Source: a virus | Strand: one strand, 5' to 3' | Virus record (IMG/VR): IMGVR_UViG_3300032516_000014 | Location: 1 to 64,000 of that record | Length of the DNA: 64,000 nt | Part shown: positions 3,363 through 20,700 of the stretch, piece by piece | Layout of the letters: each line of letters opens with the position of its first letter | How positions within the stretch are numbered: the stretch's first letter is position 1 | Notes under the pieces: generated by a model | What the model saw: the letters and a program-made list of their open reading frames with translations, nothing else | What the model was told of the DNA's origin: nothing | Database searches by the model: none | Program-made: the position numbers and the translations under genes

Positions 3363-4724
3363 ATGAAAATAAAATTCAGTGATCAACTCGCGGGAGCGGC
3401 GCCGATGCCCGAACGTCCTGCACCGGCGCAAACGCCGGAAGTCCGGTTCTCGCCAGCCGTGCAGGAAAACACCCGGACTGCCGAGGTGGAACTGGTCAAA
3501 GATGCTGAACCCGCTGGGGTAGCTCCTGTCGTCCAGGCGGGCTCGAAGTGCTACTCCTGCGGACAGCAATTTCGCATCGACATTTACGAAGGTGATTTTT
3601 GTCCGGTGTGCGGCGTGAATCTCAACGGTCCCGGGGCGAAGACAAACACGGAGCGAGCTCGCATGGACGAGGAAAGGGAAAAAGCCTTGGCCGCGCGCGC
3701 GCAAGGCCCCGGGCCGGCGGATCTCGCACAGCAGGAGATGGCCCCGCCTCCCCGCGCCCGCAAACCTCGTGCGACCGCTGTTGTTGCGCCGGCTCCCGAG
3801 CCGGTGGCGCCGCCGGCACCGGTATGCCTGGCGGGTCCTGGGCGGCCGGTGACATTGCCTCCTTCGACCGTCCGGGTGATGCCGCCGGGGCCTTCCATCG
3901 TTGTCTTGCCGCACGCGCGGCCAGCGAATCCCAGCCAGGCCGTAGCGGTAATTCCCGCTACTCGGCAAGCCGTGGTCCTCCACGATCCATCGACGTGGCT
4001 CGATGAAAACGCAGTCCCGATCAGTTTGGAGGACGTTTACATGCCGAGAATCAACATCGTGCAGAAGGTGGGCGATCTCTCGAACGTTCACATCCACGGC
4101 TCCGTCGTGCTCAGTCAAACGCTGGCGCTTTACGTGCCGGAACAAACCTGCCCGGACGGTAAGGGCGGGTTGCAAAAAATCGAGGCCACAGCGCCGTTAC
4201 AAACCGTCATCGTGTGCTTTCGGCCCATGCAATACGTCGAGAAGGTGCCCGGCGGCGAGCATCGCGGGGAGTTGTTCAATTCTCCTGACGAAGTGCTGGC
4301 CTACGGCGGCACGCTGGACTACAATGAAGCGGCCGCAGACCCAAACAAGCCCTACTTCCAGAAGCTCGCCACAGCGTTGGTGATCTTGCGCAAGCCGGAG
4401 TTTGTCGCCGACCTGGAGAGCTTTCCTTACGAGCTCGACGGTATTCGGTATGCCCCGGCGCTCTGGAGCATGAAGGGCACCGCGTTCACGCACGCCTACA
4501 AGGCAATCGCGACCACGAAAGTGCATGGTCCGCTCCGTGGAAGAAAGTATTTCGAGCGGAGCTGGGATCTCTCGACCCAGCTCAAGAAGTTCCAAGCAAA
4601 CTTCGCTTACGTTCCGGTGATCAAGCTGGGCAACGACACGCCGGCAGGATTCCCGCAACTCATTCAGGAGATTCTGTGCCGACCGCGCACGGTCTCCGAA
4701 CCACCGGCCGGGGAGAGTGATTAA
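3363..4724 (+). CDS. Probable ssDNA-binding protein with N-terminal zinc ribbon and Pro/Ala-rich linker
   Basis: CYSC…CPVC; EDVYMPRINIVQK-type C-terminal domain; lies between the nuclease and PolA; acidic tail. Confidence 0.5.
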   Translation: MKIKFSDQLAGAAPMPERPAPAQTPEVRFSPAVQENTRTAEVELVKDAEPAGVAPVVQAGSKCYSCGQQFRIDIYEGDFCPVCGVNLNGPGAKTNTERARMDEEREKALAARAQGPGPADLAQQEMAPPPRARKPRATAVVAPAPEPVAPPAPVCLAGPGRPVTLPPSTVRVMPPGPSIVVLPHARPANPSQAVAVIPATRQAVVLHDPSTWLDENAVPISLEDVYMPRINIVQKVGDLSNVHIHGSVVLSQTLALYVPEQTCPDGKGGLQKIEATAPLQTVIVCFRPMQYVEKVPGGEHRGELFNSPDEVLAYGGTLDYNEAAADPNKPYFQKLATALVILRKPEFVADLESFPYELDGIRYAPALWSMKGTAFTHAYKAIATTKVHGPLRGRKYFERSWDLSTQLKKFQANFAYVPVIKLGNDTPAGFPQLIQEILCRPRTVSEPPAGESD

Positions 4725-4910: not shown

Positions 4911-6797
4911 ATGAATGCCGTTACCATAGACTTCGAGACGTTCTACCACAAGAAGGACTACTCTGTTGCGAAGATGGGCAACTGGGCGTATGTTCATGAT
5001 TCGCGTTTCGATCCGTATCTTGTCTCCGTGTGCGACGGGGAACAAACCTGGGTCGGACAGCCGAAAGATTTGAACTGGACAGCCCTCCAGGGGCGAACCC
5101 TCGTGGCTCACAACGCGGCCTTCGAGCAGCATATTGTTGCCCGGCTGGAGGAATTGAAGTGGATTCCCGAGCTGAACCTGGCGGGGTTTCATTGCTCTGC
5201 GAACATGACCAGCTACCTGTGCGACCGGCGCGCTCTCGATCATGCGTGCGACTTTTTGCTGCATGAGAAGGTGTCAAAGGGCATGCGCGAGTGGATGAAC
5301 GGACGCACTTGGGCCGACGCAGTGAAAGAAGGCAAGGACAAAGAGCTGACCGAGTATGCCCGCAAGGACGCCGAGCTGGCGTGGAGATTGTGGGACCAGT
5401 TCTCTCCGCAGTGGCCTGAGCAAGAATGTTTGTTGTCAGATCTGACGGTCGAGGGGGAGATCTACGGTATCAAGATCGACCAGAACTTGCTGACAGAATA
5501 CCTCGACATAGCCCAAAGGGCATTGATCGTGAATGAATCCCGGCTGCCTTGGATGGCCGCCGGCAAGAAGCCGACAAGTCCGATTGCGATTGCGGAGGAG
5601 TGCCGCAAGCATGGGATTCCTTGTCCGCCGGTGAAGGTCGATGATGAAGAAGGCTTCCAGATCTGGGAAGACAAGTGGTCCCCGCAATTCTCCTGGGTGC
5701 AATCCGTCGCCTCGTGGCGCCAGGTGAACAAGTTGATCGCGACGCTGCGTATGTTCGAGCAACGTTGCCGGCCAGATGGCACGGTGCCTGTGCCTCTCAA
5801 GTATTACGGGGCGCACACTGGACGCTGGGCCGGCACCTCGGGGCTGAACTTTCTCAACTTCCGCAAGGAGCCGATCTACTTGGACAAGGAGTCCATGATT
5901 ATCGAGAGGCACGAAGAGCTGAAGGAGATCCGGCGGAGTGTCGAAGAGTCGGGGCAGCTTCCCGAAGGTGTGTCAAGCGCACTCGACATCAGGAAAATCC
6001 TGGTGCCGCGCGACGGTTACAAGTTCATCCTGGCGGACCTGTCTCAGATTGAGCCTCGTGTGCTGGCCTGGTTCTGCCAGGACTGGGAGTTCTTGGACAA
6101 GCTGGCGCATGGCATGAGCCCGTATGAAGCGCATGCCCGCTCGACGATGGGCTGGAAGGGCGGCAAGCTGAAGGACGAGGACCCGAAGCTCTACAATCTG
6201 GCGAAGATCCGCGTGCTGCAACTCGGGTATCAGAGCGGCTGGCGCAAGCTGCAAGCGACCGCTTGGACCAAGTTGAACATTGAACTCGCTGACTCGGAAG
6301 CGCAGCAAATCGTGATCGACTTCCGGGCGCAGAGTCCTCGGATTACCAAGTGCTGGGAGTTGTTGGGCCGGGCCTTCAAGATGGCCACGCTGCAACACGA
6401 GGAGTTCTTTGACCTGGAACTGCCGTCGGGGCGGGAGCTGCACTACGGCAAGCCGGTCCGCAGCGCCCGAGTGCGCATGAACGAGGACACCGGGCAACTG
6501 GAAAAGGTGTCCGTGATTACTGCGGACGTGGGAGGCCGGCGCTTTTCGTTCTACGGCGGCATGCTTACGGAGAACATCGTGCAAGCTACGGCTCGGGACG
6601 TGTTTTGCGAGCAGTTGCTATCGCTCCGCCGGGCGGGGCACCGCGCGTTGTTCCACGTTTACGACGATGTCACGCTGGAAGTGAAGTCCGAAGTGACGAC
6701 GGCTGAGGTAGAGAAGTTGATGAGCGTTACTCCTTCCTGGATGCCCCGGCTGCCGGTGGCAGCGGAGGCGCAAGAAGCCACGCATTACAAGAAATGA
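4911..6797 (+). CDS. polA: Family A DNA polymerase with 3'-5' exonuclease
   Basis: ExoI DFETF, ExoII HNAAFE, ExoIII YARKD, HTGRW, motif A DLSQIEPR, motif B KIRVLQLGY, motif C variant HVYDDV. Confidence 0.95.
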   Translation: MNAVTIDFETFYHKKDYSVAKMGNWAYVHDSRFDPYLVSVCDGEQTWVGQPKDLNWTALQGRTLVAHNAAFEQHIVARLEELKWIPELNLAGFHCSANMTSYLCDRRALDHACDFLLHEKVSKGMREWMNGRTWADAVKEGKDKELTEYARKDAELAWRLWDQFSPQWPEQECLLSDLTVEGEIYGIKIDQNLLTEYLDIAQRALIVNESRLPWMAAGKKPTSPIAIAEECRKHGIPCPPVKVDDEEGFQIWEDKWSPQFSWVQSVASWRQVNKLIATLRMFEQRCRPDGTVPVPLKYYGAHTGRWAGTSGLNFLNFRKEPIYLDKESMIIERHEELKEIRRSVEESGQLPEGVSSALDIRKILVPRDGYKFILADLSQIEPRVLAWFCQDWEFLDKLAHGMSPYEAHARSTMGWKGGKLKDEDPKLYNLAKIRVLQLGYQSGWRKLQATAWTKLNIELADSEAQQIVIDFRAQSPRITKCWELLGRAFKMATLQHEEFFDLELPSGRELHYGKPVRSARVRMNEDTGQLEKVSVITADVGGRRFSFYGGMLTENIVQATARDVFCEQLLSLRRAGHRALFHVYDDVTLEVKSEVTTAEVEKLMSVTPSWMPRLPVAAEAQEATHYKK

Positions 6798-8989
6798 AAG
6801 CTCTTGCTAACCTGTCAAGCCTGTCCACTTTCGATTGTATCCCGTGGGACTTTCGTTGGATGGCGGACCCGAAGACTCGAATAGCCCGGCAAAACAACAA
6901 GAAGGCCCGACAGGAATGGATTCGCCGGTCCGACACAGTGCACCAATGCTGGTGTCCCTGGGAGGGAGTCAACGGCACCACGCGAATCGCCAAGCCGAAC
7001 AAGGCCGACGAGGGCAACCCGGCCTGGCTGCTGCATGCGCTGGCGGCGGACTTCGACTCTGTGATTGACCTGGAGGAGCTGACCAAGGCACTGGAAAATC
7101 GTTGTCCTTTTGGGCCGCCCAACGAGGTCGAGTGGACCATGACGCCTGGCCACTGCCGCTTGGTGTGGGTGTTAGACCAACCGCTCATGTTCGCGAGTCA
7201 TGAGTTTGCGGTGCATTGCCTGAAGCACATCGCTACGCAAATGAAATTTGCGGGCGTCTTGTCCGGCTTTGACGCCGGGGCGTTTGAAGATCCCAGCCGC
7301 TACTATACCAACAGCGGAGAGTGGCGGCACGTAACCGATGCGCCTCTGCTATCCGCCGCCTTGATCCGCGGATGGATGCAGGAGTCTTCAGAAAAATTCA
7401 ACTGGGCGCCGCTCGGGCTCGCGATTCCTTTGGAGCACGTGGCCCCCGAGCTGGCCAAACTCTTCCCCCGCTTCTCAGAGTGGCCCGGGGATTTCAAACT
7501 CGGGTCGCAGGGACCGTCTTTCTGGGTGAATGGGTCAGTGAGTCCAACATCCGCAATCGTGCGAGAGACGGGCATACAGACGTTTGCGGCGCACGCACAC
7601 AAGGCTTTCTTTTCCTGGTCCGAGCTACTGGGCGCAGCGTTCACAGAGACGTTTCGGGTGAAGCAACTCGGCGCGGCGACGGAGAATGTTTACTGGGACA
7701 CGGAGAAATACTGGCGATTGGACGGCGAACAAAAGTGGATGGGGGTAAGTCAGTTTGACATCTCGATGTTTCTCCGCACGAATCGCGGGCTCTTGGCGGT
7801 CCGAGATAAGACTGGGCATTCACAACTCGACAGCGCGTTGCTTTTCATCCAGGATTATCAGAACCTCGCTCAAGTCACAGAGCGCGTGTTTCAACCTTAC
7901 GGGTTGCTCGTTGAGGAAGGCCGGAGAATTCTTAACGTATCCCAGAAGCGCGTGGTGCAGCCCGTGAATCATCCAGTGACCTGGGGACCGCAAGGCGAGT
8001 TCACGTTCATCAGCATGGTCCTGGATGCGCTGTTTGTTGACGCGGAACAAGAGGAGTATTTCAAAGCGTGGTTGGCGCGGTTCTATCAGGGCGCCTATCG
8101 GTTAAATTTGGAGAGCGGGCAGGCTTTGATCTTCGCCGGAGGTGGGGGCATTGGTAAAACGATGCTAAACGTCGGCATCGTAGGCGGGGTCATGGGCGGG
8201 AGTGAAGATGCAGGCCGATACCTTGCTGGCAAGGACCAATATGGGGGCGAACTTTGGCAGGTTGGGCACTGGGCCGTGGATGATTTTTCGGCCTTCGACG
8301 ATCACGCGGCCAAACAAGCTTTTGCTGAGGGCTTGAAAGCGGTAGTTGCGAACACTATGTTTTCCTCTCGGCAGAAATACCAAGTGACTCGCCGGGTGCC
8401 GTGGTGCGGGCGCGTGCTCATTACGTGCAACCTGGATTCGTTGTCCTCCGATATGATCCCTAGCTTGGATCGAAGTAACGCGGACAAGATAGTGTTGTTG
8501 CGGGGGGTGGAAGATCCGCCCGTTCAGTATGCTTCTCAGTCAGAAACCACGGCCCGGATAAAACGAGAACTGCCTTTCTTTGCTCGGTATTTGCTCGATT
8601 ACAAAACACCGGAGAGACTCATCGGAGCCTCGCGCTTCGGCATTCAAGCTTTCAAAGACAAGTTGCTGGCAGAAGTAGCCCAAGACGGTAGTTTTGGGAG
8701 CACGTTTGCCGACATCTTCATGTCTGCGCTTCGATCTTATTTTGAGACGTGCCCGAAAGAAGAAGCCTGGCAAGGTTCTTCTGTTAGCGCATTCAGACTC
8801 ATCGACGCGGACGGCGGCACGAAGGCGATGCGTTTGTCGGCGATCTCAACCGGGCGGTATCTGTCATCTCTTATGCAGAGGCCAGAGAATCCGTTTCACA
8901 TTTCGCGGCAACATCGAGTGCACGTAAGCTCCTGGTGGACCGTGCCCCGCGAGGCGGTCTTAGAGTATTTTGAGAAAGTAAAAGCATGA
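6794..8989 (+). CDS. Primase-helicase (AEP/PrimPol-like N-terminus plus SF3-like helicase)
   Basis: ADFD and TPGH catalytic-like motifs; Walker A GGGGIGKT, Walker B WAVDD, LITCN. Confidence 0.8.
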   Translation: MKALANLSSLSTFDCIPWDFRWMADPKTRIARQNNKKARQEWIRRSDTVHQCWCPWEGVNGTTRIAKPNKADEGNPAWLLHALAADFDSVIDLEELTKALENRCPFGPPNEVEWTMTPGHCRLVWVLDQPLMFASHEFAVHCLKHIATQMKFAGVLSGFDAGAFEDPSRYYTNSGEWRHVTDAPLLSAALIRGWMQESSEKFNWAPLGLAIPLEHVAPELAKLFPRFSEWPGDFKLGSQGPSFWVNGSVSPTSAIVRETGIQTFAAHAHKAFFSWSELLGAAFTETFRVKQLGAATENVYWDTEKYWRLDGEQKWMGVSQFDISMFLRTNRGLLAVRDKTGHSQLDSALLFIQDYQNLAQVTERVFQPYGLLVEEGRRILNVSQKRVVQPVNHPVTWGPQGEFTFISMVLDALFVDAEQEEYFKAWLARFYQGAYRLNLESGQALIFAGGGGIGKTMLNVGIVGGVMGGSEDAGRYLAGKDQYGGELWQVGHWAVDDFSAFDDHAAKQAFAEGLKAVVANTMFSSRQKYQVTRRVPWCGRVLITCNLDSLSSDMIPSLDRSNADKIVLLRGVEDPPVQYASQSETTARIKRELPFFARYLLDYKTPERLIGASRFGIQAFKDKLLAEVAQDGSFGSTFADIFMSALRSYFETCPKEEAWQGSSVSAFRLIDADGGTKAMRLSAISTGRYLSSLMQRPENPFHISRQHRVHVSSWWTVPREAVLEYFEKVKA

Positions 8990-9624
8990 GCCAGCCTTTA
9001 TCCGCCGAACGCGAGCGCTTGTTGTTCCAGCGTTTGCCGGGCCTTCAGGGGCGCCGCGCGCTCGCGGAGTTGGCGGAGCATTTCATAGGCATGGCTCAGT
9101 CAGAAGCCTTGCGAATCGCAGGCGATCGAATGGATGAGTCGGAAGTGAAGAGCTTGGCCAGCTCGGTGTTGCTGCAAACACTGAAGGCCTTCAAACTAAG
9201 CCGGAACACTCGGTTTTCGGTCTATTTGCGCAAGGCGCTTTTCCAAGAGATCTCAAACCTGCGCGCCGACGCGTTCTTTCGGTCAGCCGATCGGGTTTGG
9301 TATGGCCGGACGCAAAGCGGAGGAGAACAAGGCAGCCGGCGCAATCCGTCCACGGGGACGATGATGCCGGTGTTTCACGGCGGGGACTCGGAGGGAGTTA
9401 ATCTGGTCACGATCTCTCGCGAATACTTGTATCCGATGATGCGGCTGCTACCTCGTGACGATCAACGTTTGTTGCGGGCGTATTTCTTCCGGGGCCTTAA
9501 CATCGTCCAGATTGCGGAACGTCGTCACGTCACCAAGCAAGCAATCTCTCTTCAGCTTCACAAAGCCTTAGACCGGCTGCGTAAGAAAATGGCTCATGCT
9601 CCCATATCCCTTAAAGACCTATGA
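8986..9624 (+). CDS. RNA polymerase sigma-70-family factor
   Basis: Region 2-like AFKLSRNTRFSVY; region 4 HTH NIVQIAERRHVTKQAISLQLHKALDRLRKK. Confidence 0.8.
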   Translation: MSQPLSAERERLLFQRLPGLQGRRALAELAEHFIGMAQSEALRIAGDRMDESEVKSLASSVLLQTLKAFKLSRNTRFSVYLRKALFQEISNLRADAFFRSADRVWYGRTQSGGEQGSRRNPSTGTMMPVFHGGDSEGVNLVTISREYLYPMMRLLPRDDQRLLRAYFFRGLNIVQIAERRHVTKQAISLQLHKALDRLRKKMAHAPISLKDL

Positions 9625-10157
9625 ACATCGTCGCTCTTGATTTGGGCATTCACACCGGCTTCGCTCACAACGACGGCTTCCAATTTGACTCGGGCACCTG
9701 GGTATTCAAGGGCAAAGCTGACCGGGATCTTGATTATCGCGTCTCCGATTTTTACGGCAAGCTTTACCGGCTGCTTGAGCATCGCCTGGGATCGCCTATA
9801 TACGACTGGGTGGTGTTCGAGGACGTGCAGTTCTCGACCTACACGTATCAAACGCAACTCTGGGCGAGCTTCCGGGCGGCTATGTGGCTCGCGTGTTACC
9901 ACCGGGGGCTTCGCTGCAAAGGAGTCCCGGTCGGCACGTTGAAGAAGTTTGCCACTGGGCACGGCGGCGCGACGAAGGAAATGATGGCCGCCTGGGCAGT
10001 GAAACGGTTTGCGCCTCGGCTTTACCGGGGCAGCGATGGAACAGTGCGTAGTCAGGGAACCAATTTCAAGGTTGACGACAACGAGATTGATGCGATACAC
10101 TTGCACGATCTTGCGACGCATAACGAATTGTATTTGCTGAACCACAAACTCCCATGA
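9621..10157 (+). CDS. RuvC-like Holliday junction resolvase
   Basis: ALDLGIHTG, VFED, LKKFATGHGGATK, DDNEIDA. Confidence 0.85.
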   Translation: MNIVALDLGIHTGFAHNDGFQFDSGTWVFKGKADRDLDYRVSDFYGKLYRLLEHRLGSPIYDWVVFEDVQFSTYTYQTQLWASFRAAMWLACYHRGLRCKGVPVGTLKKFATGHGGATKEMMAAWAVKRFAPRLYRGSDGTVRSQGTNFKVDDNEIDAIHLHDLATHNELYLLNHKLP

Positions 10158-10731: not shown

Positions 10732-11763
10732 ATGAAAAACAAATACCTCGACAAGCAGATTGCAGAAGTAGCGCGCAAAAATCCAAGTTGGGGCCGCGAC
10801 CGGATTGCCAAGGCATTAAATGCGCCGTATAGCACCGTGCGCAACGCACTGCGACGGCTTCAGGCAACGGCGGAAGCCAAGCCCGACAAGCCCTCTGAGT
10901 CTCTTGCGGTGCAAGTCGCGAAGAAAGCTCCCATCGAATTTGGGCGCCTGGGCCTGGAACACGTCGATGCGGGTGACTGGTTTCGCGTTGGCTTGGTGGC
11001 TGATACCCACTTGTGTTGCCAGGAAGAACGCCTTGAAGCGTTGCATTGTCAATACGATCTCTTCAAGTCGGAGGGGATCTCCAGCGTTTTACACGCCGGC
11101 AATTTGGTGGATGGTTGCGTGCCGAAGATCAACGGTGCCTCCGTGATTGTCAGCACCCCCGACGACCAGGCGCAATACGTGATCGACAACTACCCGACGC
11201 GAGCTGGTATTACAACGTATTACATTACCGGAGACGATCACGAGGGTTGGTGGATTAAGCAAGGGCTGAACTGGGGCATCATGCTGCAATACATGGCCAA
11301 GGCCCAAGCACGGGAAGATTTGCATTACATCGGGCACGTCGAAGCTGACGTGGAGATCATGGTCCCGGACACGGTGAAAAAGCCGGTGATCAAGATTCAG
11401 CACCCCGGCGGCGGGAGTTGCTACGCGCGCAGCTACGCGCCCCAACGCACCATCGAGAGTCTTGAAGGCGGGGAGAAGCCGGACGTGCTGGTCCAGGGGC
11501 ACTACCACGTCAACGGGTTTTGGAACGAGCGCAACGTGCACGTGATCACCCTGCCAGGATTCCAGGACCAGACGATCTTTGGTCGAAAGAAGCGTCTGCG
11601 TTTTGAAGTGGGCGGCGCGATCCTTGAATTCAAAGTCAACTCAGCCGGCGCGATCACCCGCTGCCGGTGCGAGTTCAACATGTTCTTCAACCGGGGGTAC
11701 TACAAAGCGTTTTTGCGCTCGGACAGAAAGCTGTTGAAAGGGCATCTGCGACTGACCGTGTGA
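10732..11763 (+). CDS. HTH plus calcineurin-like metallophosphoesterase
   Basis: N-terminal HTH (GRDRIAKALNAPYSTVR); DTH, GNLVDG, GDDHE, HP, GHYH. Confidence 0.85.
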   Translation: MKNKYLDKQIAEVARKNPSWGRDRIAKALNAPYSTVRNALRRLQATAEAKPDKPSESLAVQVAKKAPIEFGRLGLEHVDAGDWFRVGLVADTHLCCQEERLEALHCQYDLFKSEGISSVLHAGNLVDGCVPKINGASVIVSTPDDQAQYVIDNYPTRAGITTYYITGDDHEGWWIKQGLNWGIMLQYMAKAQAREDLHYIGHVEADVEIMVPDTVKKPVIKIQHPGGGSCYARSYAPQRTIESLEGGEKPDVLVQGHYHVNGFWNERNVHVITLPGFQDQTIFGRKKRLRFEVGGAILEFKVNSAGAITRCRCEFNMFFNRGYYKAFLRSDRKLLKGHLRLTV

Positions 11764-12332
11764 AGACGATCCTGCTAACGTATTACGACGACCGGCGGCG
11801 AGACATCGCCCAGGTTGCGGTCCCGGCGATGAAACGCTTTGCCGATGAGAATCAAATCGAGCTGGTCGCACTGGAGGAACCGACGTTGGCGAGCCCGATG
11901 GGGCACAAAATCCTCCTGGTCCTAAAGTTTCTGGAGCAGTGCGACCGCTTGATCTACGCGGACTCCGATGTTTTGTTTCAGAGACACGCAACCCTCCGGG
12001 ATCTGTTTCAGAAACCGGTGGGAGTCTCTCAAGACTACGCCGGCTTATGCACCGGCTTCATGACGTTTGTGCGAGCCGTGAAAGTAGTCGAGCTGGTGAC
12101 TCAGTGGAAGATCCAAGGAGCCCTGCCAATCCCCGGTCGGCCATTTCCGAGCGATCAACGCAGCTTCCAGAAGCTAGTTGCACGTTTGTCCGATGGTAAA
12201 GAATTGGTGGAAGAGCTTTCGCAGGACGTGGTGTCCAATCCATTAAGTTCCAAAATCGGCAGCCTGGCCCATCATTACTGGGCGCAGCATGCGTCCCAAG
12301 TTCTTGACCGAATGAGGCGTAGTTTGCGGTAA
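11760..12332 (+). CDS. GT-A fold glycosyltransferase (GT34/GT77-like)
   Basis: IYADSDVLF DxD motif, LCTGF, DQ; GTGA-coupled start at 11760. Confidence 0.7.
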   Translation: MKTILLTYYDDRRRDIAQVAVPAMKRFADENQIELVALEEPTLASPMGHKILLVLKFLEQCDRLIYADSDVLFQRHATLRDLFQKPVGVSQDYAGLCTGFMTFVRAVKVVELVTQWKIQGALPIPGRPFPSDQRSFQKLVARLSDGKELVEELSQDVVSNPLSSKIGSLAHHYWAQHASQVLDRMRRSLR

Positions 12333-12342
12333 CGCGACTGCC

Positions 12343-12390
12343 AAAAACGCAAGCCCGCGCGGGTAGAGGAACCGGCGCGGGCTTTTCCTT
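12343..12390. terminator. Bidirectional intrinsic terminator between the convergent genome arms
   Basis: AAGCCCGCGC (12351-12360) pairs with GCGCGGGCTT (12375-12384); T-rich tail on +, A5 at 12343-12347 serving the minus strand. Confidence 0.75.
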
Positions 12391-12404
12391 GTAGCATCAG
12401 AAAG

Positions 12405-12530
12405 TGGTGCCGCGAGCGGGAGTCGAACCCGCAGGACTGTTTGACTTGTCAGCTCGTTCACTGAGTCTATCCCGGAAGTGAACCTTCCAGAAAATCAAAG
12501 AGCCCGCGCCGGCCGCAGCATTCAAAGAAC
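12405..12530 (-). ncRNA. tRNA-like small RNA: canonical T-arm, acceptor 3' strand and CCA, but no canonical D or anticodon arm
   Basis: Minus strand ends GCGGG-TTCGACT-CCCGC-TCGCGGC-A-CCA (12432-12405); has its own promoter and terminator. Confidence 0.65.
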
Positions 12531-12537
12531 TGCGGAC

Positions 12538-12566
12538 AAGCTACACCTGCACGCGGAAATTGTCAA
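12538..12566 (-). promoter_or_regulatory. Sigma-70-type promoter for the tRNA-like RNA
   Basis: TTGACA (12566-12561), 17-nt spacer, TAGCTT (12543-12538). Confidence 0.7.
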
Positions 12567-13507
12567 ACAACTATTTTTCGGATCAAGCTCTCGTAAAACG
12601 GAAGAGCGTTGTCTTCCCAGCGCCGGGGGTAGTTGAATTTGAAGAAGTCCCATTCGTAGTGCGTCTCGGGCCAGGTAACCCCAAACTGAAAAGACCGCCA
12701 GGGAAGAGCGAAAAGATCTTCATCAGAGATTGCGGGACGCTGAAAGATTTGCGTGAAGAGGTCCGCGCCGATCCGGGATATGAGCAACATCGTCGGGTGA
12801 GAAATCAACCAAAAGAGTTTCTCCCGTCGCAGGTGTGCCCGGACAAAAGGTTCAATGGGGGTGTCGCACTGGGCGTCTTTCTGCGCCATGCGGTTCATCG
12901 CTTCGGCGTGCCGGGTGGTAAACTGCGGGTCGAATTGCCCCTCGCGGAGGGCGCGCGCGATCTGATCGTGCGTTTGCCCGGCGCGTAGCAGCCGGCGGAC
13001 GTTCTCCAGGTCTTTTGGGATGTCGGTAACGGGAAAGATGCTGCTGAGAGAAGGCGCGTGCATGCGCAAGCGGCGCCCTGGGATCTCTGCGGCTACTTGA
13101 CTGCCGAACTGCTCTAGGAAAGGTTGGTGCGCCGGCCACGCATTCGAGACATAAAAGTCGGTGTGTTGAAAGAACGCATGCACGAGCGGCTGCGCGAGCA
13201 GGGTGGGGATGCGTTCGGGAAACTTCCAGCTCACGATGCCCCAGCAATTCATCTCCGGCGGGTTAGGGTAGAGTTCCTTCCAGTAGCGGAGCAACTGCCG
13301 CCCGTGGCAGGCGGTGTAAAGTCCGAGCGTGGGCCAGTTCGGGCGCCAGGGCTCTGACCACACGATTGAACGTGGATACCATTCGTCCGCCTGTGCGGGG
13401 GCGGTGAAGAATCGTATTTCTTCGGGGGTAGGCGCGCGAGCCAGCAGGGCAACGAAGACCTGGGTCACGCTCTCCGGGGTGGGGTGCTCGAAGTTCCAGA
13501 TGCTCAC
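12563..13507 (-). CDS. WcbI-like polysaccharide biosynthesis protein
   Basis: LYTACHG and KLFWLISHPT resemble the WcbI-family xxNCQ and LFxxxNHP motifs; GTGA-coupled start at 13507. Confidence 0.55.
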   Translation of the reverse strand: MSIWNFEHPTPESVTQVFVALLARAPTPEEIRFFTAPAQADEWYPRSIVWSEPWRPNWPTLGLYTACHGRQLLRYWKELYPNPPEMNCWGIVSWKFPERIPTLLAQPLVHAFFQHTDFYVSNAWPAHQPFLEQFGSQVAAEIPGRRLRMHAPSLSSIFPVTDIPKDLENVRRLLRAGQTHDQIARALREGQFDPQFTTRHAEAMNRMAQKDAQCDTPIEPFVRAHLRREKLFWLISHPTMLLISRIGADLFTQIFQRPAISDEDLFALPWRSFQFGVTWPETHYEWDFFKFNYPRRWEDNALPFYESLIRKIVV

Positions 13508-13809
13508 GGGATCTCTTCCCTCACCGGGACGGTAGCCAGGTTGTATTTGTGCGCTGCCCAAAGCCGGTGGTGCCCGTCGCTCACAATTCGCCTGCCGTGG
13601 CGCCAGGTGATCAGGACTGGCGTGCGCACCCCGTATTGGCGCACCGAGGAGAGAAAGTGCCGCCAGGCTTCCGGGCAGGCTTGAAAGTGGCGCTGCTCGA
13701 TGTAGGCAAAAACTTCCCCCCAGTTACCCTCGTGGCATCCGCGGTAATCCACGGGGGAAGTGGACGCCAGGATCTCTGCAAGTGGGCGGGTTTCAAAAAG
13801 CGTTTGCAC
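13504..13809 (-). CDS. ParB/Srx-like N-terminal domain protein
   Basis: SVRQYGVRTPVLI…VSDGHHRLWAA…VPV. Confidence 0.85.
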   Translation of the reverse strand: MQTLFETRPLAEILASTSPVDYRGCHEGNWGEVFAYIEQRHFQACPEAWRHFLSSVRQYGVRTPVLITWRHGRRIVSDGHHRLWAAHKYNLATVPVREEIP

Positions 13810-14748: not shown

Positions 14749-17700
14749 TCATTTCGGGCGAATCTCTGCCTTCTCGGCGGATTGCGTAGCGGGTTTCACG
14801 GCGCCGGCTAAACGCTGACGCCGTTCCCACTCGTCCACCAGCACGCGATGCCAGTTTTTATCAACCCGGCGAAACCGATCATCGGTCACTAGACGCTGTA
14901 ACTCGGCGTCGGGCATCCCCTGCGACATCATCTTCTCATTCTGGCTCGCGCGCTTTGGCATAAAATTCGCCGAGTTAATATCGCCCAGGTCGAGGCCCAA
15001 GTCAAGGGGCTGTTCTGTCGGCGCGGCCCGGATCTCCAGCCGGCCAGTTTCCTCGTTTCGTTGCAGCTTTTTCAACGGCTCCTCGAAAGACGCCAGCTCT
15101 TCGCCGGCCCCCCGAGTCCACCCGCGCTCGCCCCACAGCTTCTTTTCCTGAAACCACATCAGGGCTTGCAGGTCGTCCGGCTGCATGTGCAACTCTTTTG
15201 CCGCCTTTGCAAATGCTTCCTGCGCGAACAAGAAGGCGGGATCGGTAATGCCGCCCTCGCTGCGGGGCAGCAATCGCCACGGAGATTTCGTCAGCCCGTC
15301 CCAGCCCAGGCGTTTCATCGTCCGGGAAGCCCACACGTCGATGGTCGCGCCGTGATCGGTGCCCGCCAGGTTTTTCGCAAACTGCTGCGTCTTGAGCCCC
15401 TGCACTTCCTCGGCCCAGGTGCCGGACAGCACCCGCAAAACCTGATCCGAGTTCTGGCCAAATTGTTTTTCGTTCTCGCGAACTAAGGAGAGCTCGCGGC
15501 TTTCGATCCACCACTCCTTCAGCGCAGCGTCGGAGGGCACGATGGTTGAGTTGTTCTCGCGCTGCCATTGCCGCAACAACCCGCCCGTTTCCAGCTTGGC
15601 ATAAGCCTTCTTGTATGAAGCGATCGCGTCGTCGAACTTGCCTTCCTTCCAGAGGTTATACGCTTCGAGAGCATACTTGAAGTTTTGGGCCACGTCAGTT
15701 CTCGCGCTGGTGGCCGCGAGCAACTGGGCGAAAGAAGTAACCTCGGCGTCAGTCTTGAAGTGCTCTTTGATCAGCCGGACGGTTTCTTGATACCAGGACT
15801 TGCCGGCGAGCACGTCTGGGTCAGCAATTGCGCGCGCTTCTTCGGCAATCTTCTTGGCGAATGCAGTCGTCTGGGCATCTTGACGCGCTGACTCTCCGCG
15901 GATTCCTTTGGCAGCTTGCCGGGACAAAGGCGAATCGTCGAACGTGTATTTCACCATGTTCACGAGGGGCTTGCCTTTGGCGTTGATAATGTATTCGCCT
16001 TCGGGGGTTCGCTTGAACAGGACGGGCACTGACTCCGGGTGGAATTCAACACGTTCCTGCGTTACGCGCCGAGCGTAATCCCGAGCAAAGGCTTGCGGGT
16101 CCGTCTCCGTTACCTCGGCCCCGAACTCTGCTTGCTCCGCGTCGCCTTTCTTCGGCTTGGGCATGAACGCGGCTCGTTGCGCGCCAGTGTCAGAAATGAG
16201 GGGGAGGTGATCCAACTTGTCGATGCCCTCATACTCCACCAGGTTTGCGGCGCCTCCATCGACAATCTTCATTTTGCCGTTGAGGATGTTGACCCGCATG
16301 TGGTCGATGTCGTCGAGGTTCTCGCGCACCAACTGGAAAATCTTGTCCTTCGCATCCGTGGTCCAGGCGTTCTCGGAAGCCTCGATCGCTAGCGTTCCGG
16401 TGCGAGGTTCGTAGCGAACGCGAATGAAGCCTTCTCGAATGGCCTTCTCTCGTTCAGCAATGTCGGGCACGTTTGCAAAGTCCGTGCCGTATTCCGCGTT
16501 GAGCTTAGCGCTATTACGGGCCAGCCAGTCCTCGTGCATGCTGCCCTGGATGGAGCGGAACTTTCCGTCGGGGTCGATCCACCCGGAGGTTTCCAGCTTC
16601 TCAGGTTCCTCCCGCCGGCCGCGCTTAGCCATCATTGCTGCTTCGGGCGGTTTGGGCAGCTCGGCTGGGATCGCGTTCTCTCCCTTCAACAACGCTTGCA
16701 CCGCCTTCGCAATCTGCGCGGGAGAGGTCAGAACGGTTTTCCCAGTGCCGCCCACCGGGATTGAGTGTCCGTAAGGGTCCTTCTCCGTGGGCACCGTGTC
16801 ATAAATCGCCTGCTGCTGGTTGAACTTCCCAAAAGCGATCGTGTTGTCCCGATGCTTCTGATCAGGCAGCGCATTCACGTCGATGCTTGTCTGCGTCGGG
16901 TCGTCCATCTTGAACACCCCCATAGCCGTCCCCGGAATTGCAAGCACGTCCTCGTATCGGTCGGCTACTTTTTGCACCGCCGCCGGAGTGAGTGCCTTCG
17001 TCAGCACGTTCTCGCTGGCCACGGTGACGATGTCCACTTTCTGATCTTTTCGATCCCACACCTTGCCGGCGCCGGTGAACGTCTGCCCAGAGCTGGTGCC
17101 CTCGCGAACCTTTGCAAGTTCGTCGGCGACTTCCTTCGATTTCTCAAACGCTTGCGGCATGAAGGCGCCGTGAAACTGCGCAACCCTTGACGAAGTGCGA
17201 CTGGGCAAGTGGCCGGCGCGATAAAACTCTTTGATGTCGTTGATAATTACCGTTGGATTCGTGACGGCCGGATAAACCCGGCTATCACGTGCGTAACCGT
17301 TTTGATCAACTAAATCAACAGCCACCTCCCCCCACTCATTTTTCAAACTCGGATCAGCGAAGAAACTTTCCAGCTTGCGATATTGTGCCTCAGAAGGTTC
17401 TTTGTTTGAGGAGATCTCCGCACCGGGTAACTCCGGCATGATTCGGATCGCGCCGGAATTGACAAACGCTGTCAGCCCGGATGTTTCACCGGAGTAACCC
17501 AATTTCCCAGCACCGGCTTTCTTCGATGCCGCCGCTATGAACGGGGTAAGCATGTTTTCTCCCACCGCTTCAGCAATCGAAGAGTGGTCGATCGTGCGTT
17601 TGTAATCTCCAGGCGGGGCATCGGGACCTTTGCCGGTGAAATCAAGCTGCGTGCCGTCGGGTAGTAGATAGCCGGTCTCCTTCCACTTCTCCGTGTCTCC

Positions 17701-20700
17701 GTATTCCCGCCAGGCGGCGCGATGCAAGCGTCGAGCGTATGTAGTCAGTAACTTGTCTTCGGACTCCTTGCGCTTGGCCATGAACGCACCTTCGGCCTTG
17801 CCGGTGGGTTCATCAACAATTTTCCATCCGAGACGATTAAGAGCGCTCTCGAAAACATCAGTCCCGACAGGAAGTGTTCCGCGGGGAACGCCGGGTAGAG
17901 GCTCCCACACAGTCACAACTCTTGTCAGAGCTCCAGTAGCAGGAGAATACCGGGGCTTGCCAACCGATGCCCGCACAAGTTGGTTGTCGGGACCCTGCAA
18001 CAAAACGCTCACGTCTCCGGGTGTCGATTTCGGTATGTTCTTAAAAGACCAGCCGGATTTGTTTCTCCAAGCAGAGCGTTCCATTACTTCTGCTCCCGTT
18101 TCTTTTTGCCCGGGGATGTCCTCGGGTAAAATAGGCAGATCAGCCATTCCAGCGACTCGACTTTTCGTCATGAACGCACCTTCGGCCTTGCCGGGCGTCT
18201 TGTCAAGTTGCTGCGAGGCCCAGTCGTAGATCTCGCGCGCGAAATTCTCGTGGATCGCCGGGTCGGTGTGGAACGACTTCGCGAGCACGTTCTCATCCAC
18301 GTCGGCGGCAGAGGTCGTCTTCAACTCCTTCGACAACTCGCTGCCCTCATACACGGCCAGGTTGTAGATGTTCGCGTGGCTGATCACGTCTGAATTCTTC
18401 CGGAGGAAGTCCATCGTGTGCGCATAGGTCGCCGCGGTCTCCCCCGGCAACCCGATCACGATGTTCGGAATGAACGCGATGCCCAGCCGGCGCATCTGCT
18501 CGGTGGCGGCGTCGATCAACTTCTCGTTCGCCGGTTTGCGCTGACCTTTCAGCACGCTGTCGTTGTAGGACTCGACGCCCAGCTCGATGAACTTGATGCC
18601 GCTCTTGCGCAGGAATTCGTCGCTGAAGGACTTCATTTGCGCCGCCGTCGTCTGAATCACGAAGCCCCCGAAGTCGGGATTCGCAGCCTTCATCTTGGCA
18701 TAGAGCTCGGGCAGTCGCAAGTAACTGTCGTGATGGCCGAAGGTTTTGTCGTTGAGATAAGCCAGCGGCGCATTCAGATCGCCGAAGGCGTCCACTTGCT
18801 GAGTCACTACCTCGGGCGGCGTCCCAACGACCTTTTTCGTGGTCGTGCAGAACTTGCACGCGTGCCGGCACCCCTGCGAGAGATCCAGCCGAGGAACAAC
18901 GGAAGAACCCCGATACAAGCGGTAGTCAAAGCCGCGTTTGTATTCCAGCCCAAGAGATCGAACGTATTCATCGATGGATTCATACCGGGTTGCGCGAGGG
19001 TTGCGCGAGGTGATCTCGCTGGTGTCCGTGTAGCCGCCCAGGACCGTGTGGCCTGGATTTGCGTCCGCGAGCTCCGCGACCTTCGACTTGTTCACGTCGA
19101 GCACCGAGAAGGCCACGTCCTGGTAGCCCGCTGTGGCGAGAAAGCTCTTGGCTTCCGCCATGTCGCGCACCACGTAGAGATCCGCCGCCTCGCCAAGCGC
19201 GTGTGTCAACACTGCGTGCCACTGCGGGACTTCCCAGAAGTCGGGCAGTCGAGCATACCCCTTGCGCTGCGCATACAGCTTGTCGTAATATGCGGATGCA
19301 GCAACATCCAAGGGATTTGGAGGTTTGTTCACGTCGGTTGGGGCATACATCATGTCCTTCGTGAACTGCATCAGCAACACCCGGTTGGAGTTGTCCGACG
19401 CTCCCGACTGGCGAACCCATAGGTTGCCCTTGCCCCGCTCGACCGCGTGCCCATACGTATCCGCAGGCTCCGTAATCTCGCTGCCGCGCGCCTTGGGCAT
19501 GAACGCCGCCGGGGTGAGGCCGGCGGATTCCCCCGGAAGAGCGGGCCGGTCGGGGTTTGTCTCAGAGCTTCCGACCATGCCATCAGGAATGTCGATCGGT
19601 CGCTGCGGAGTCGGCCCGAGTGGTTCAGTTGTCGCAGGGGCATCTTCTACCGTCCAACCCTTCTTGTTTAGCGAGGGCTCGTATGTGGTGCTACGCGCGG
19701 TGAAAGCACCGGGGAAAGATTCCTTGGGTGTGATCTGTCGCACCATACCCAGGCCCAGCACGGAGGCATCCTGGTCCCCGTCGTGCGTGGCTGCGACTCG
19801 TTCCCCGTTCGGCCCCACCAGGGTTACGTCACGCTTCGGCATGAAGCCGGCGCGAGCCAGGTCCGTCGAAGGCATGCGCAGCAAAGACTCAGGCCGCGGC
19901 GTGAGACCGCGGATCTGCTCCAGACTGAGCTCTTGCGTGACTTCGTGCAACTGCCCTTTCGCGTCGAAGCCGGCGTCCACCAGCTCCGCCCGCAGGGGGT
20001 TGGTCTCCATGACCGGCACGTCTTCCGGGACGATGATGCCCTTCTTGGCAAGAGCTTCCTTCTTGAAGACCGGCGCGCCTTTCGCGGGGGTAAGCGGGCG
20101 CCCATGCGCCTCTGCAAGTATCTGTGCCGCCATTCCCGCGGGCATCGGCATACCCGAAGGTCCGGTTCGCTGGGCAACTCGGCCAGTTTTCGGCGGAGCG
20201 AGGCCCATCGAGGCGTTGATGAATTGCGCTTTCCGCGGATCAAGAAGGGTCGGCTTCCAGTTTGGATCTGGCGCCGGGATTACCCCTTGCCAGCCTGCGG
20301 GTGGGTGCATCGCCGTGCCGTCGCCGCCGTAGCCGTGAGCGTGATTGCGCAGGTAAGAGGTTACATCAGCCGCAAAGTCCCTAAATCCAGGCTCCGTGAA
20401 ATGCCCGTCCGACCCTGTTTCATACGGCACAAGACCTGGTGCCTTCTTGCGAGCGGAAAACTCTCCAATCCGTAGCGCATTCGCGAGCAGGATGTCGAGG
20501 TTCATCGACAGCAGGTTTACGTTGTCTCCGCGAACCTTAACGCCATAGAATATCGCTTGATGTCGGAGCGTCCGCAAGAGTTCAACCGGATAGGTCCCGT
20601 CCGCCTTGCGCTGCAATTCGACTTCAAGACGCTCCGCCCTGCGGATGTATCTTGCCACGTTTTCACCAACCGTTTCGGGCCGGGCATAGTCGAGCTCCAC

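Follow-up and report, generated by a model that had tools for sequence, protein, structure and literature searches.

A tRNA-derived gene with an intact acceptor/T half and no recognisable anticodon arm at a convergent gene junction of an uncultured sediment phage

We analysed the first 64,000 nucleotides (nt) of the IMG/VR record IMGVR_UViG_3300032516_000014 (hereafter the window; 64 kilobases, kb, of a 76,395-base-pair, bp, record), the genome of an uncultured sediment phage that has direct terminal repeats and is rated complete. On the minus strand of this window, at 12519-12405, lies a 115-nt element that, as read from its sequence, is a real, well-formed and unusual gene derived from a transfer RNA (tRNA) and confined to one phage species. 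The explanation that we tentatively favour, at a little under even weight, is that it would be a working gene for a non-decoding tRNA-like RNA having the top half of a tRNA only. We found no description of the 115-nt RNA in the literature. The element occupies a 230-nt gap in which a plus-strand and a minus-strand gene block converge, and its parts, numbered from the first nucleotide of the mature form, are as follows.

12561-12566, minus strand: -35 box TTGACA, overlapping the TGA stop codon (12565-12563) of the upstream WcbI-like gene of 332 amino acids (aa)
12538-12543, minus strand: -10 box TAGCTT, a 3/6 match to TATAAT (T1, A2 and T6 kept), separated from the -35 box by a 17-nt spacer
12520-12531, minus strand: 5' leader of about 12 nt, placed from the promoter spacing and ending in U(-1) before G+1, the presumed RNase P site
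12405-12519, minus strand: the 115-nt tRNA-like RNA in its mature form
12513-12519, minus strand: 5' strand of the acceptor stem, GCUGCGG (nt 1-7)
12506-12512, minus strand: unpaired 7-nt linker containing GG (nt 8-14), which replaces the D arm and offers a toehold for a long-range helix
12493-12505, minus strand: 5' strand of a long stem (nt 15-27), forming 5 bp, a C.C mismatch and 7 bp with nt 74-86
12470-12492, minus strand: hairpin 1 (nt 28-50), 9 bp with loop GUUCA, stacked on the long stem
12449-12464, minus strand: hairpin 2 (nt 56-71), D-arm-like, a side branch off the rod
12434-12446, minus strand: 3' strand of the long stem (nt 74-86), with the single nucleotide U87 between the long stem and the T stem
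12416-12432, minus strand: T arm, GCGGG / UUCGACU / CCCGC, a 5-bp stem with a consensus 7-nt loop (UUCRANY)
12405-12415, minus strand: 3' strand of the acceptor stem, UCGCGGC (12415-12409), then discriminator A and encoded CCA (12408-12405)
12384-12404, minus strand: A/U-rich 3' trailer, whose CAAGG pairs with CUUUG (nt 20-24) in an alternative fold
12343-12383, minus strand: intrinsic terminator, with 5' arm 12383-12372, 3' arm 12363-12352 and U tract 12347-12343 (z = -3.6)
12484-12512, minus strand: imperfect direct repeat (nt 8-36) of the terminator 3' arm and U tract (12363-12337), a likeness reached in 4/1000 shuffles

First, both ends of the predicted RNA are those of a tRNA. An earlier reading made from the letters alone (the sequence-only reading) had described a minus-strand promoter of the form TTGACA-17-TAGCTT, the pairing of GCTGCGG (12519-12513) with TCGCGGC ahead of ACCA through two G-U pairs to give a 115-nt RNA, a perfect T arm and a GGAAG-gttca-CTTCC hairpin. 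All of these are present, the promoter at 12566-12538 and the acceptor stem with 7/7 pairs, two of them G.U, beginning at G1-C72. Downstream, the terminator is bidirectional and also serves as the predicted terminator of the convergent plus-strand gene (11667-12332) on the far side of the element.

Secondly, the D and anticodon arms that would normally lie between these ends are replaced. In the minimum free energy (MFE) fold their place is taken by a rod of about 21 bp, composed of the long stem and hairpin 1, with one side hairpin. The core of hairpin 1, GGAAG-GUUCA-CUUCC, extends to 9 bp, and the hairpin nests with the long stem and the acceptor stem in one coherent fold. Its GUUCAC (nt 37-42) has a complement in GUGAAC (nt 59-64), in and beside the loop of hairpin 2 (-7.5 kcal/mol). 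Outside the T arm region, an exhaustive hairpin scan detected nothing of anticodon type, for which a 7-nt loop with U33 and R37 was required. No D arm with a stem of 3-4 bp was found either, the best candidate offered by ARAGORN making 2/3 pairs and nt 8-14 being unpaired in the MFE fold. That a standard D-loop and 7-nt anticodon arm are missing, as had been noticed at the outset, is borne out by both the scan and the fold. Hand inspection also led us to reject a class II tRNA, which would have a long variable arm, and to reject a tag reading frame.

The combination of parts is rare. A strict scan for a T arm, a 7-bp acceptor stem and CCA gave 2 matches in 2.7 megabases (Mb) of phage-family DNA, namely the element and a true tRNA, and the same scan gave 1 match in 8.2 Mb of shuffled DNA. 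The pattern TTGACA-N16-18-TAnnnT occurs at one site in the window, at the element, with 0.44 expected, and this host-type promoter stands out because the phage encodes a sigma-like protein of its own.

Measured against known classes, the element has the acceptor stem, discriminator, CCA and T arm of a canonical tRNA and lacks the D arm, the anticodon arm and a score with the Rfam tRNA model. Default ARAGORN reports 0 tRNA or transfer-messenger RNA (tmRNA) genes in the window. Across the whole genome neither RF00005 (tRNA) nor RF00023 (tmRNA) matches at an expectation value (E) of 10 or below, and ARAGORN -m gives nothing at its default threshold. No Rfam family matches at the gathering score, the best local match within the clan being tRNA-Sec (16 bits, E = 2.8). 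The ARAGORN and Rfam comparisons that the sequence-only reading had proposed are therefore negative for the default program and for the tRNA and tmRNA models, whereas the intron-permitting mode, ARAGORN -i, returns a call at exactly 12519-12405, a tRNA-Cys(ACA) with a 43-nt intron after U33.

Folding as an intron-containing tRNA was an outcome named in advance as telling against a tRNA mimic, and formally the ARAGORN -i call produces it; we judge the model not credible. On this model the anticodon loop of a 72-nt tRNA would be interrupted by 43 nt, whose removal by splicing would leave a decoder, and by hand reading a shift of the junction by 1-2 nt would yield a UCA or UUA anticodon. Bacterial tRNA introns, however, are group I ribozymes several times longer than the 43-nt insert, which is much too short for a group I intron. 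When the MFE fold is checked by hand, the helix runs unbroken across the 5' junction and shows no bulge-helix-bulge, the phage has no RtcB, and the spliced product would have a D arm of 2/3 pairs and an ACA anticodon, which to our knowledge is not used in bacteria. With neither a splicing apparatus nor a credible spliced tRNA at hand, we regard an intron-containing tRNA as very unlikely.

Evidence for the origin of the element comes from its 3' end. A block of 25 nt comprising the T arm, the acceptor 3' strand and the discriminator is identical in 12 bacterial species of two phyla among the species genomes scanned, and each of these matches forms the 3' end of an intact tRNA-Leu-like gene that is short (74-76 nt) and has CAG, CAA or GAG as its anticodon. 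The genes lie in tRNA arrays of Myxococcus, Corallococcus, Pyxidicoccus, Dactylosporangium and Actinoplanes (Myxococcota and Actinomycetota), and a further copy of the 25-nt end is found in a Myxococcus provirus in IMG/VR. The bacterial 5' acceptor strand, GCCGCGG, differs from that of the element at one position (C3 to U3) with pairing kept. The bacterial genes are ordinary cloverleaves without CCA, while the element encodes CCA, lacks D and anticodon arms, is 40 nt longer and differs from them in about half of the rest of its body. Within this body nt 44-87 weakly resemble the 5' halves of array tRNAs (z = 2.1; 16/500 shuffles) and nt 1-43 show no resemblance. From the exact tRNA-Leu identity of the 3' end and the weak resemblance of the body, we take the element to be tRNA-derived, its top half kept exactly and its body rebuilt. 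The unchanged 25-nt top half beside a changed body suggests constraint on the top half only. A tandem duplication of leader and tRNA was also considered as the origin and rejected, since the leader and outer acceptor strand do not resemble the sequence that precedes the inner strand. As a separate observation, the same 25-nt end is shared across arrays of Myxococcota and Actinomycetota, and because at least one such array lies in a predicted provirus, this sharing suggests phage-borne spread of non-canonical tRNA sets.

The same 3' identity had led the sequence-only reading to offer, as its alternative, a phage attachment site (attP) remnant made from a tRNA-Leu-like 3' end. The likeness to tRNA-Leu has proved exact, but the attachment-site interpretation of it is disfavoured. 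An attP site or a recombination scar from a host tRNA 3' fragment would account for an exact identity of 25-26 nt to bacterial tRNA 3' ends and for the direct-repeat structure nearby. Against this, no tyrosine (PF00589) or serine (PF00239) recombinase is found anywhere in the complete, terminally repeated 76-kb genome, which extends to the whole phage the earlier remark that no integrase is nearby, and in bacteria the 25-nt end occurs only inside intact tRNA genes (12/12 in arrays rather than at prophage junctions). The element moreover has a matching 5' acceptor strand, a promoter and an encoded CCA, the last of which the bacterial genes lack. We consider an attachment-site origin very improbable. 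The intact bacterial genes, the genome without an integrase and a normal tRNA at the same junction in a related phage are the grounds on which we regard the element as evidently a tRNA-derived gene in a tRNA slot and not an attachment-site remnant.

That related phage is IMGVR_UViG_3300027976_000078 (L031), which carries a canonical 75-nt tRNA-Thr(UGU) with encoded CCA at 15228-15154 on the minus strand. It lies at the same convergent junction, between a terminator and the last late gene, whose stop codon it abuts. Since this tRNA sits where the element sits, after the last minus-strand late gene, before a terminator and facing the plus-strand block, the site is a tRNA slot in this phage family. 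The two occupants are not orthologues, the tRNA-Thr having a normal cloverleaf, no promoter of its own and acceptor and T arm sequences unrelated to those of the element, and the slot was evidently filled independently in the two phages.

The relatives among which this phage was found are 80 loci of uncultured phages, many on contigs of 60-75 kb, gathered through a 731-aa protein of the replication block. The protein (6794-8989, plus strand) has no Pfam match of its own, though its relatives carry PF19263, and with 174 confirmed IMG/VR matches, many likewise on contigs of 60-75 kb, it serves as a marker of an uncultured phage clade. When model R1 was run on the 80 family loci, the 12 bacterial arrays, the provirus and the T4 tRNA region, it returned ordinary tRNAs only. 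A metagenome scan returned near-identical strains only, and IMG/VR single-protein scans with three neighbouring genes yielded one close relative only. Reads from four sequencing runs contained no variants in the element and gave only fragmentary contigs and short tRNA-like k-mers. Within the element a single base separates the strains, a G36 to U change in the pair that closes the loop of hairpin 1.

Several of these results, with others, weigh against a working RNA. The long form is present at 0/80 family-level loci (ARAGORN with and without introns, model R1, and the scan for T arm, acceptor and CCA). Its other copies occur only in strains that are 98-99.4% identical across the region, and among these strains the element is conserved no better than its flanks. 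All of the sequencing runs that contain it (24/24) are of sediment DNA, with no RNA run. Because the genome is GC-rich, chance should supply a 7-mer capable of closing the acceptor stem 0.21 times in every 160 nt, so acceptor pairing alone is weak evidence. The folding energy is modestly better than that of shuffles (z = -2.6 for the 115 nt; z = -2.4 for the inner 80 nt, with 3/200 shuffles as good). A stricter promoter scan omits the promoter because its weak -10 box is only a 3/6 match. By hand reading, nt 44-115 form a worn cloverleaf in which an inner 5' strand pairs at 5/7 positions, a D-arm-like hairpin carries a bulged A, and a 3-bp anticodon-like stem surrounds U-CAA-A. Finally, no gene for SmpB, a CCA-adding enzyme or RtcB, and no tRNA-handling gene, was found in the phage.

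These observations give substance to a serious rival, which we rate as a real if minority possibility: a decaying or rearranged tRNA-Leu(CAA)-like gene without present function, disrupted when the 3' half of the terminator was copied into its 5' region, with the clean acceptor pairing and the inner helices being left-overs or chance. The element is a singleton lineage, a relative has a normal tRNA at the junction, the array-like nt 44-87 and the repeat of the terminator arm and U tract are as such an event would leave them, closure of the acceptor stem is cheap, and neither the tRNA model nor default ARAGORN gives a score. Neutral decay, however, should be even, and here a 25-nt top half is unchanged and CCA is kept while about half of the 5' body is changed; neither the promoter, the U(-1)/G1 junction nor the terminator is disrupted; and acceptor stem, long stem and hairpin 1 combine in a single coherent fold.

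A non-decoding tRNA-like RNA in working order would, in our preferred reading, be made as follows. The unit is arranged like a bacterial tRNA gene (promoter, leader ending in U(-1), G1-C72, A73-CCA, trailer, terminator), and from this we infer its maturation. Host sigma-70 RNA polymerase would produce a precursor of about 190 nt, RNase P would cut at U(-1)/G1, and RNase E with 3' exonucleases would trim the end to CCA. The stable 115-nt RNA would then present an acceptor/T minihelix with an NCCA end to proteins that read this half of a tRNA, decoding being impossible. In origin, a phage-borne short tRNA-Leu-like gene may have occupied the tRNA slot where the late operon ends, and a copy of the terminator 3' half may have been used to rebuild the 5' body of the gene. 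As to use, our leading guess, which in itself is unlikely to be right, is that some factor recognising the 3' end or acceptor stem of tRNAs, such as a defence toxin that modifies or cuts these parts or an aminoacylating enzyme, would be titrated by the RNA or would use it as substrate. Published accounts describe phage tRNAs that counter tRNA-targeting defences (PMC10264068, PMC11464382, PMC11555353).

The stand-alone tRNA mimic of the sequence-only reading thus survives as a predicted transcription unit with promoter, leader, CCA-bearing body, trailer and terminator, while the functions proposed for it find no support and no partner gene was found. For anticodon nucleases in particular, an RNA with no anticodon loop would make a poor decoy. 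The suggested likeness to Y RNA fails in that no Y RNA family of Rfam matches at E <= 10, and the neighbouring genes show no Pfam match to Ro60/Rsr (TROVE), although no search aimed at TROVE was made.

A further property of the transcript is that it can fold in two ways. The sequence-only reading had pointed out that 12512-12501 is complementary over 12 bp to 12383-12372 and that folds should therefore compete, and both points hold, in the duplex energy as in the MFE folds of partial transcripts. The complementarity to this terminator 5' arm is perfect, its 12-mer is unique in the 76-kb genome, and the helix gains 5 further pairs in the trailer, so that nt 8-24 are involved. The duplex (-40 kcal/mol) is matched by 0/1000 shuffles and 1/2000 genomic windows. 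In the full transcript the tRNA-like fold together with the terminator is favoured over the long-range fold by only 3.9 kcal/mol, with an equilibrium probability of 0.003 for the long-range pair. For transcripts ending at 12376-12356, from which the 3' arm of the terminator has not yet emerged, the long-range helix is the MFE structure by about 13 kcal/mol.

This competition may reflect a real attenuator, or it may be a by-product of the rebuilding of the gene, because nt 8-36 repeat the terminator 3' half. A mainly cis-acting switch would have nt 8-24 pair either with nt 74-86, allowing the terminator to form, or with the trailer and the terminator 5' arm as an antiterminator; tRNA-like folding or the binding of a factor would then choose between termination and read-through antisense to the replication and sigma-factor genes. 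Such a switch could coexist with a non-decoding RNA. The element does possess a terminator with a mutually exclusive helix, the 12 + 5 bp duplex being rare and close in energy to the MFE fold, dominant in the unfinished transcript and provided with a free GC-rich 7-nt toehold (nt 8-14). No sense gene follows the terminator, however, only the antisense of the convergent genes; a duplicated terminator half explains the complementarity equally well; no ligand or sensor is evident; and the long-range pair is scarcely populated at equilibrium. We regard a primarily regulatory role as improbable. Similarly improbable in our estimate is a self-sensing mimic, in which folding of the tRNA domain or its capture by a protein would decide the fate of its own terminator, nt 8-24 otherwise invading the terminator 5' arm. 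If this were true, a single RNA fold would govern two outcomes, production of the mimic and antisense transcription running on into the replication and sigma-factor operon, and the RNA would represent a novel type of regulatory or counter-defence RNA in phages.

The element would be a clean minimal example of an intact acceptor/T/CCA half with no anticodon and its own host-type promoter, and a convenient test case for the role of the tRNA top half alone in an infected cell. Were it merely a decaying tRNA, it would still show a recurrent tRNA slot at the late operon end in a large clade of uncultured phages of about 70 kb, and the rebuilding of a tRNA gene by copying of a terminator half.

The genes around the element are those of a phage remote from all cultured phages: by tblastn and blastn against cultured phages, its DNA polymerase is 27% identical at best, a neighbouring gene has no match, and the element region gives a single 33-nt blastn match, to a tRNA-Leu. 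The plus-strand block, which runs up to 12332, encodes a helicase, an exonuclease, a family A DNA polymerase, the 731-aa protein, a sigma-factor-like protein (8986-9624; Sigma70_r4, phrog_351) and then a RuvC-like resolvase (9621-10157). From its sigma-factor-like gene, the phage probably directs its own late transcription. The minus-strand block, from about 59 kb down to 12563, includes tail-fibre-like and internal-virion-like proteins, and a 2808-aa open reading frame (14749-23175, minus strand) adjoins the region. The last late gene, which encodes the 332-aa protein immediately upstream of the element (12563-13561, minus strand), is WcbI-like (PF18588, E = 1.6e-7), WcbI being a family of capsule polysaccharide enzymes. 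The gene has a homologue at 54% identity and diverges more among strains (93% amino-acid identity) than the two genes across the junction (99%).

When IMG/VR was scanned with a loop-motif pattern, two unrelated matches came up, a genuine phage tmRNA and a T arm remnant. The first is a full-length tmRNA on a 109-kb viral contig (IMGVR_UViG_3300032893_000012, 134-488 of the extracted locus L103; RF00023, 77.9 bits; G3:U70) that is missed by ARAGORN -m. The second is a lone T arm remnant just before a tRNA-Glu in IMGVR_UViG_3300037067_012186 (about 3365-3385 of locus L104). In the same locus, an AT-rich phage tRNA array includes at 4227-4317 a candidate amber suppressor, a tRNA of 91 nt whose anticodon is CUA and which ARAGORN labels 'tRNA-Pyl'.

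Among known systems, the tRNA-like domain of tmRNA (RF00023) resembles the element in having an acceptor stem and T arm, no D stem and a long helix after an unpaired linker. The junction topology of the RF00023 consensus structure, including the one nucleotide before the T stem, is reproduced, and AUAGACUCAG resembles the consensus GACUAAG region. These likenesses would fit a miniature tmRNA derivative that mimics the tRNA-like domain and binds SmpB or other trans-translation factors. The 3:70 pair, however, is U.G and not the G.U of tmRNA (G3:U70), the element has no UUCGAC-type D-loop motif, tag frame or pseudoknots, the tmRNA model finds nothing at E <= 10, the phage has no SmpB gene, and the 3' end matches tRNA genes and not ssrA. 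A tmRNA derivative is accordingly the explanation to which we give least weight, far below that of a non-decoding tRNA-like RNA. YrlA is likewise a non-decoding RNA with a tRNA-like module; its RNA ends pair as the Ro-binding stem, and a loop caps the module; the acceptor end of the element is open and CCA-tailed, the opposite end topology.

The closest system in kind is rnaC of phage T4 (species 1 RNA; NC_000866 70908-71046), an expressed RNA of the tRNA cluster whose role has been unassigned for decades (PMC3014915, PMC9697503). Both are phage tRNA-like RNAs, rnaC being a stable RNA beside tRNA genes, and both combine a consensus T arm near the 3' end and an acceptor-like closing stem with long hairpins instead of D and anticodon arms. 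The resemblance is one of form and not of homology, in that the two share no sequence or model similarity and model R1 gives no match to rnaC. The acceptor-like stem of rnaC is imperfect and its CCA is not encoded, whereas the stem of the element pairs at 7/7 positions and is followed by an encoded CCA; and whereas rnaC lies among several tRNA genes and is cut from a polycistronic precursor, the element is a single gene with a promoter of its own.

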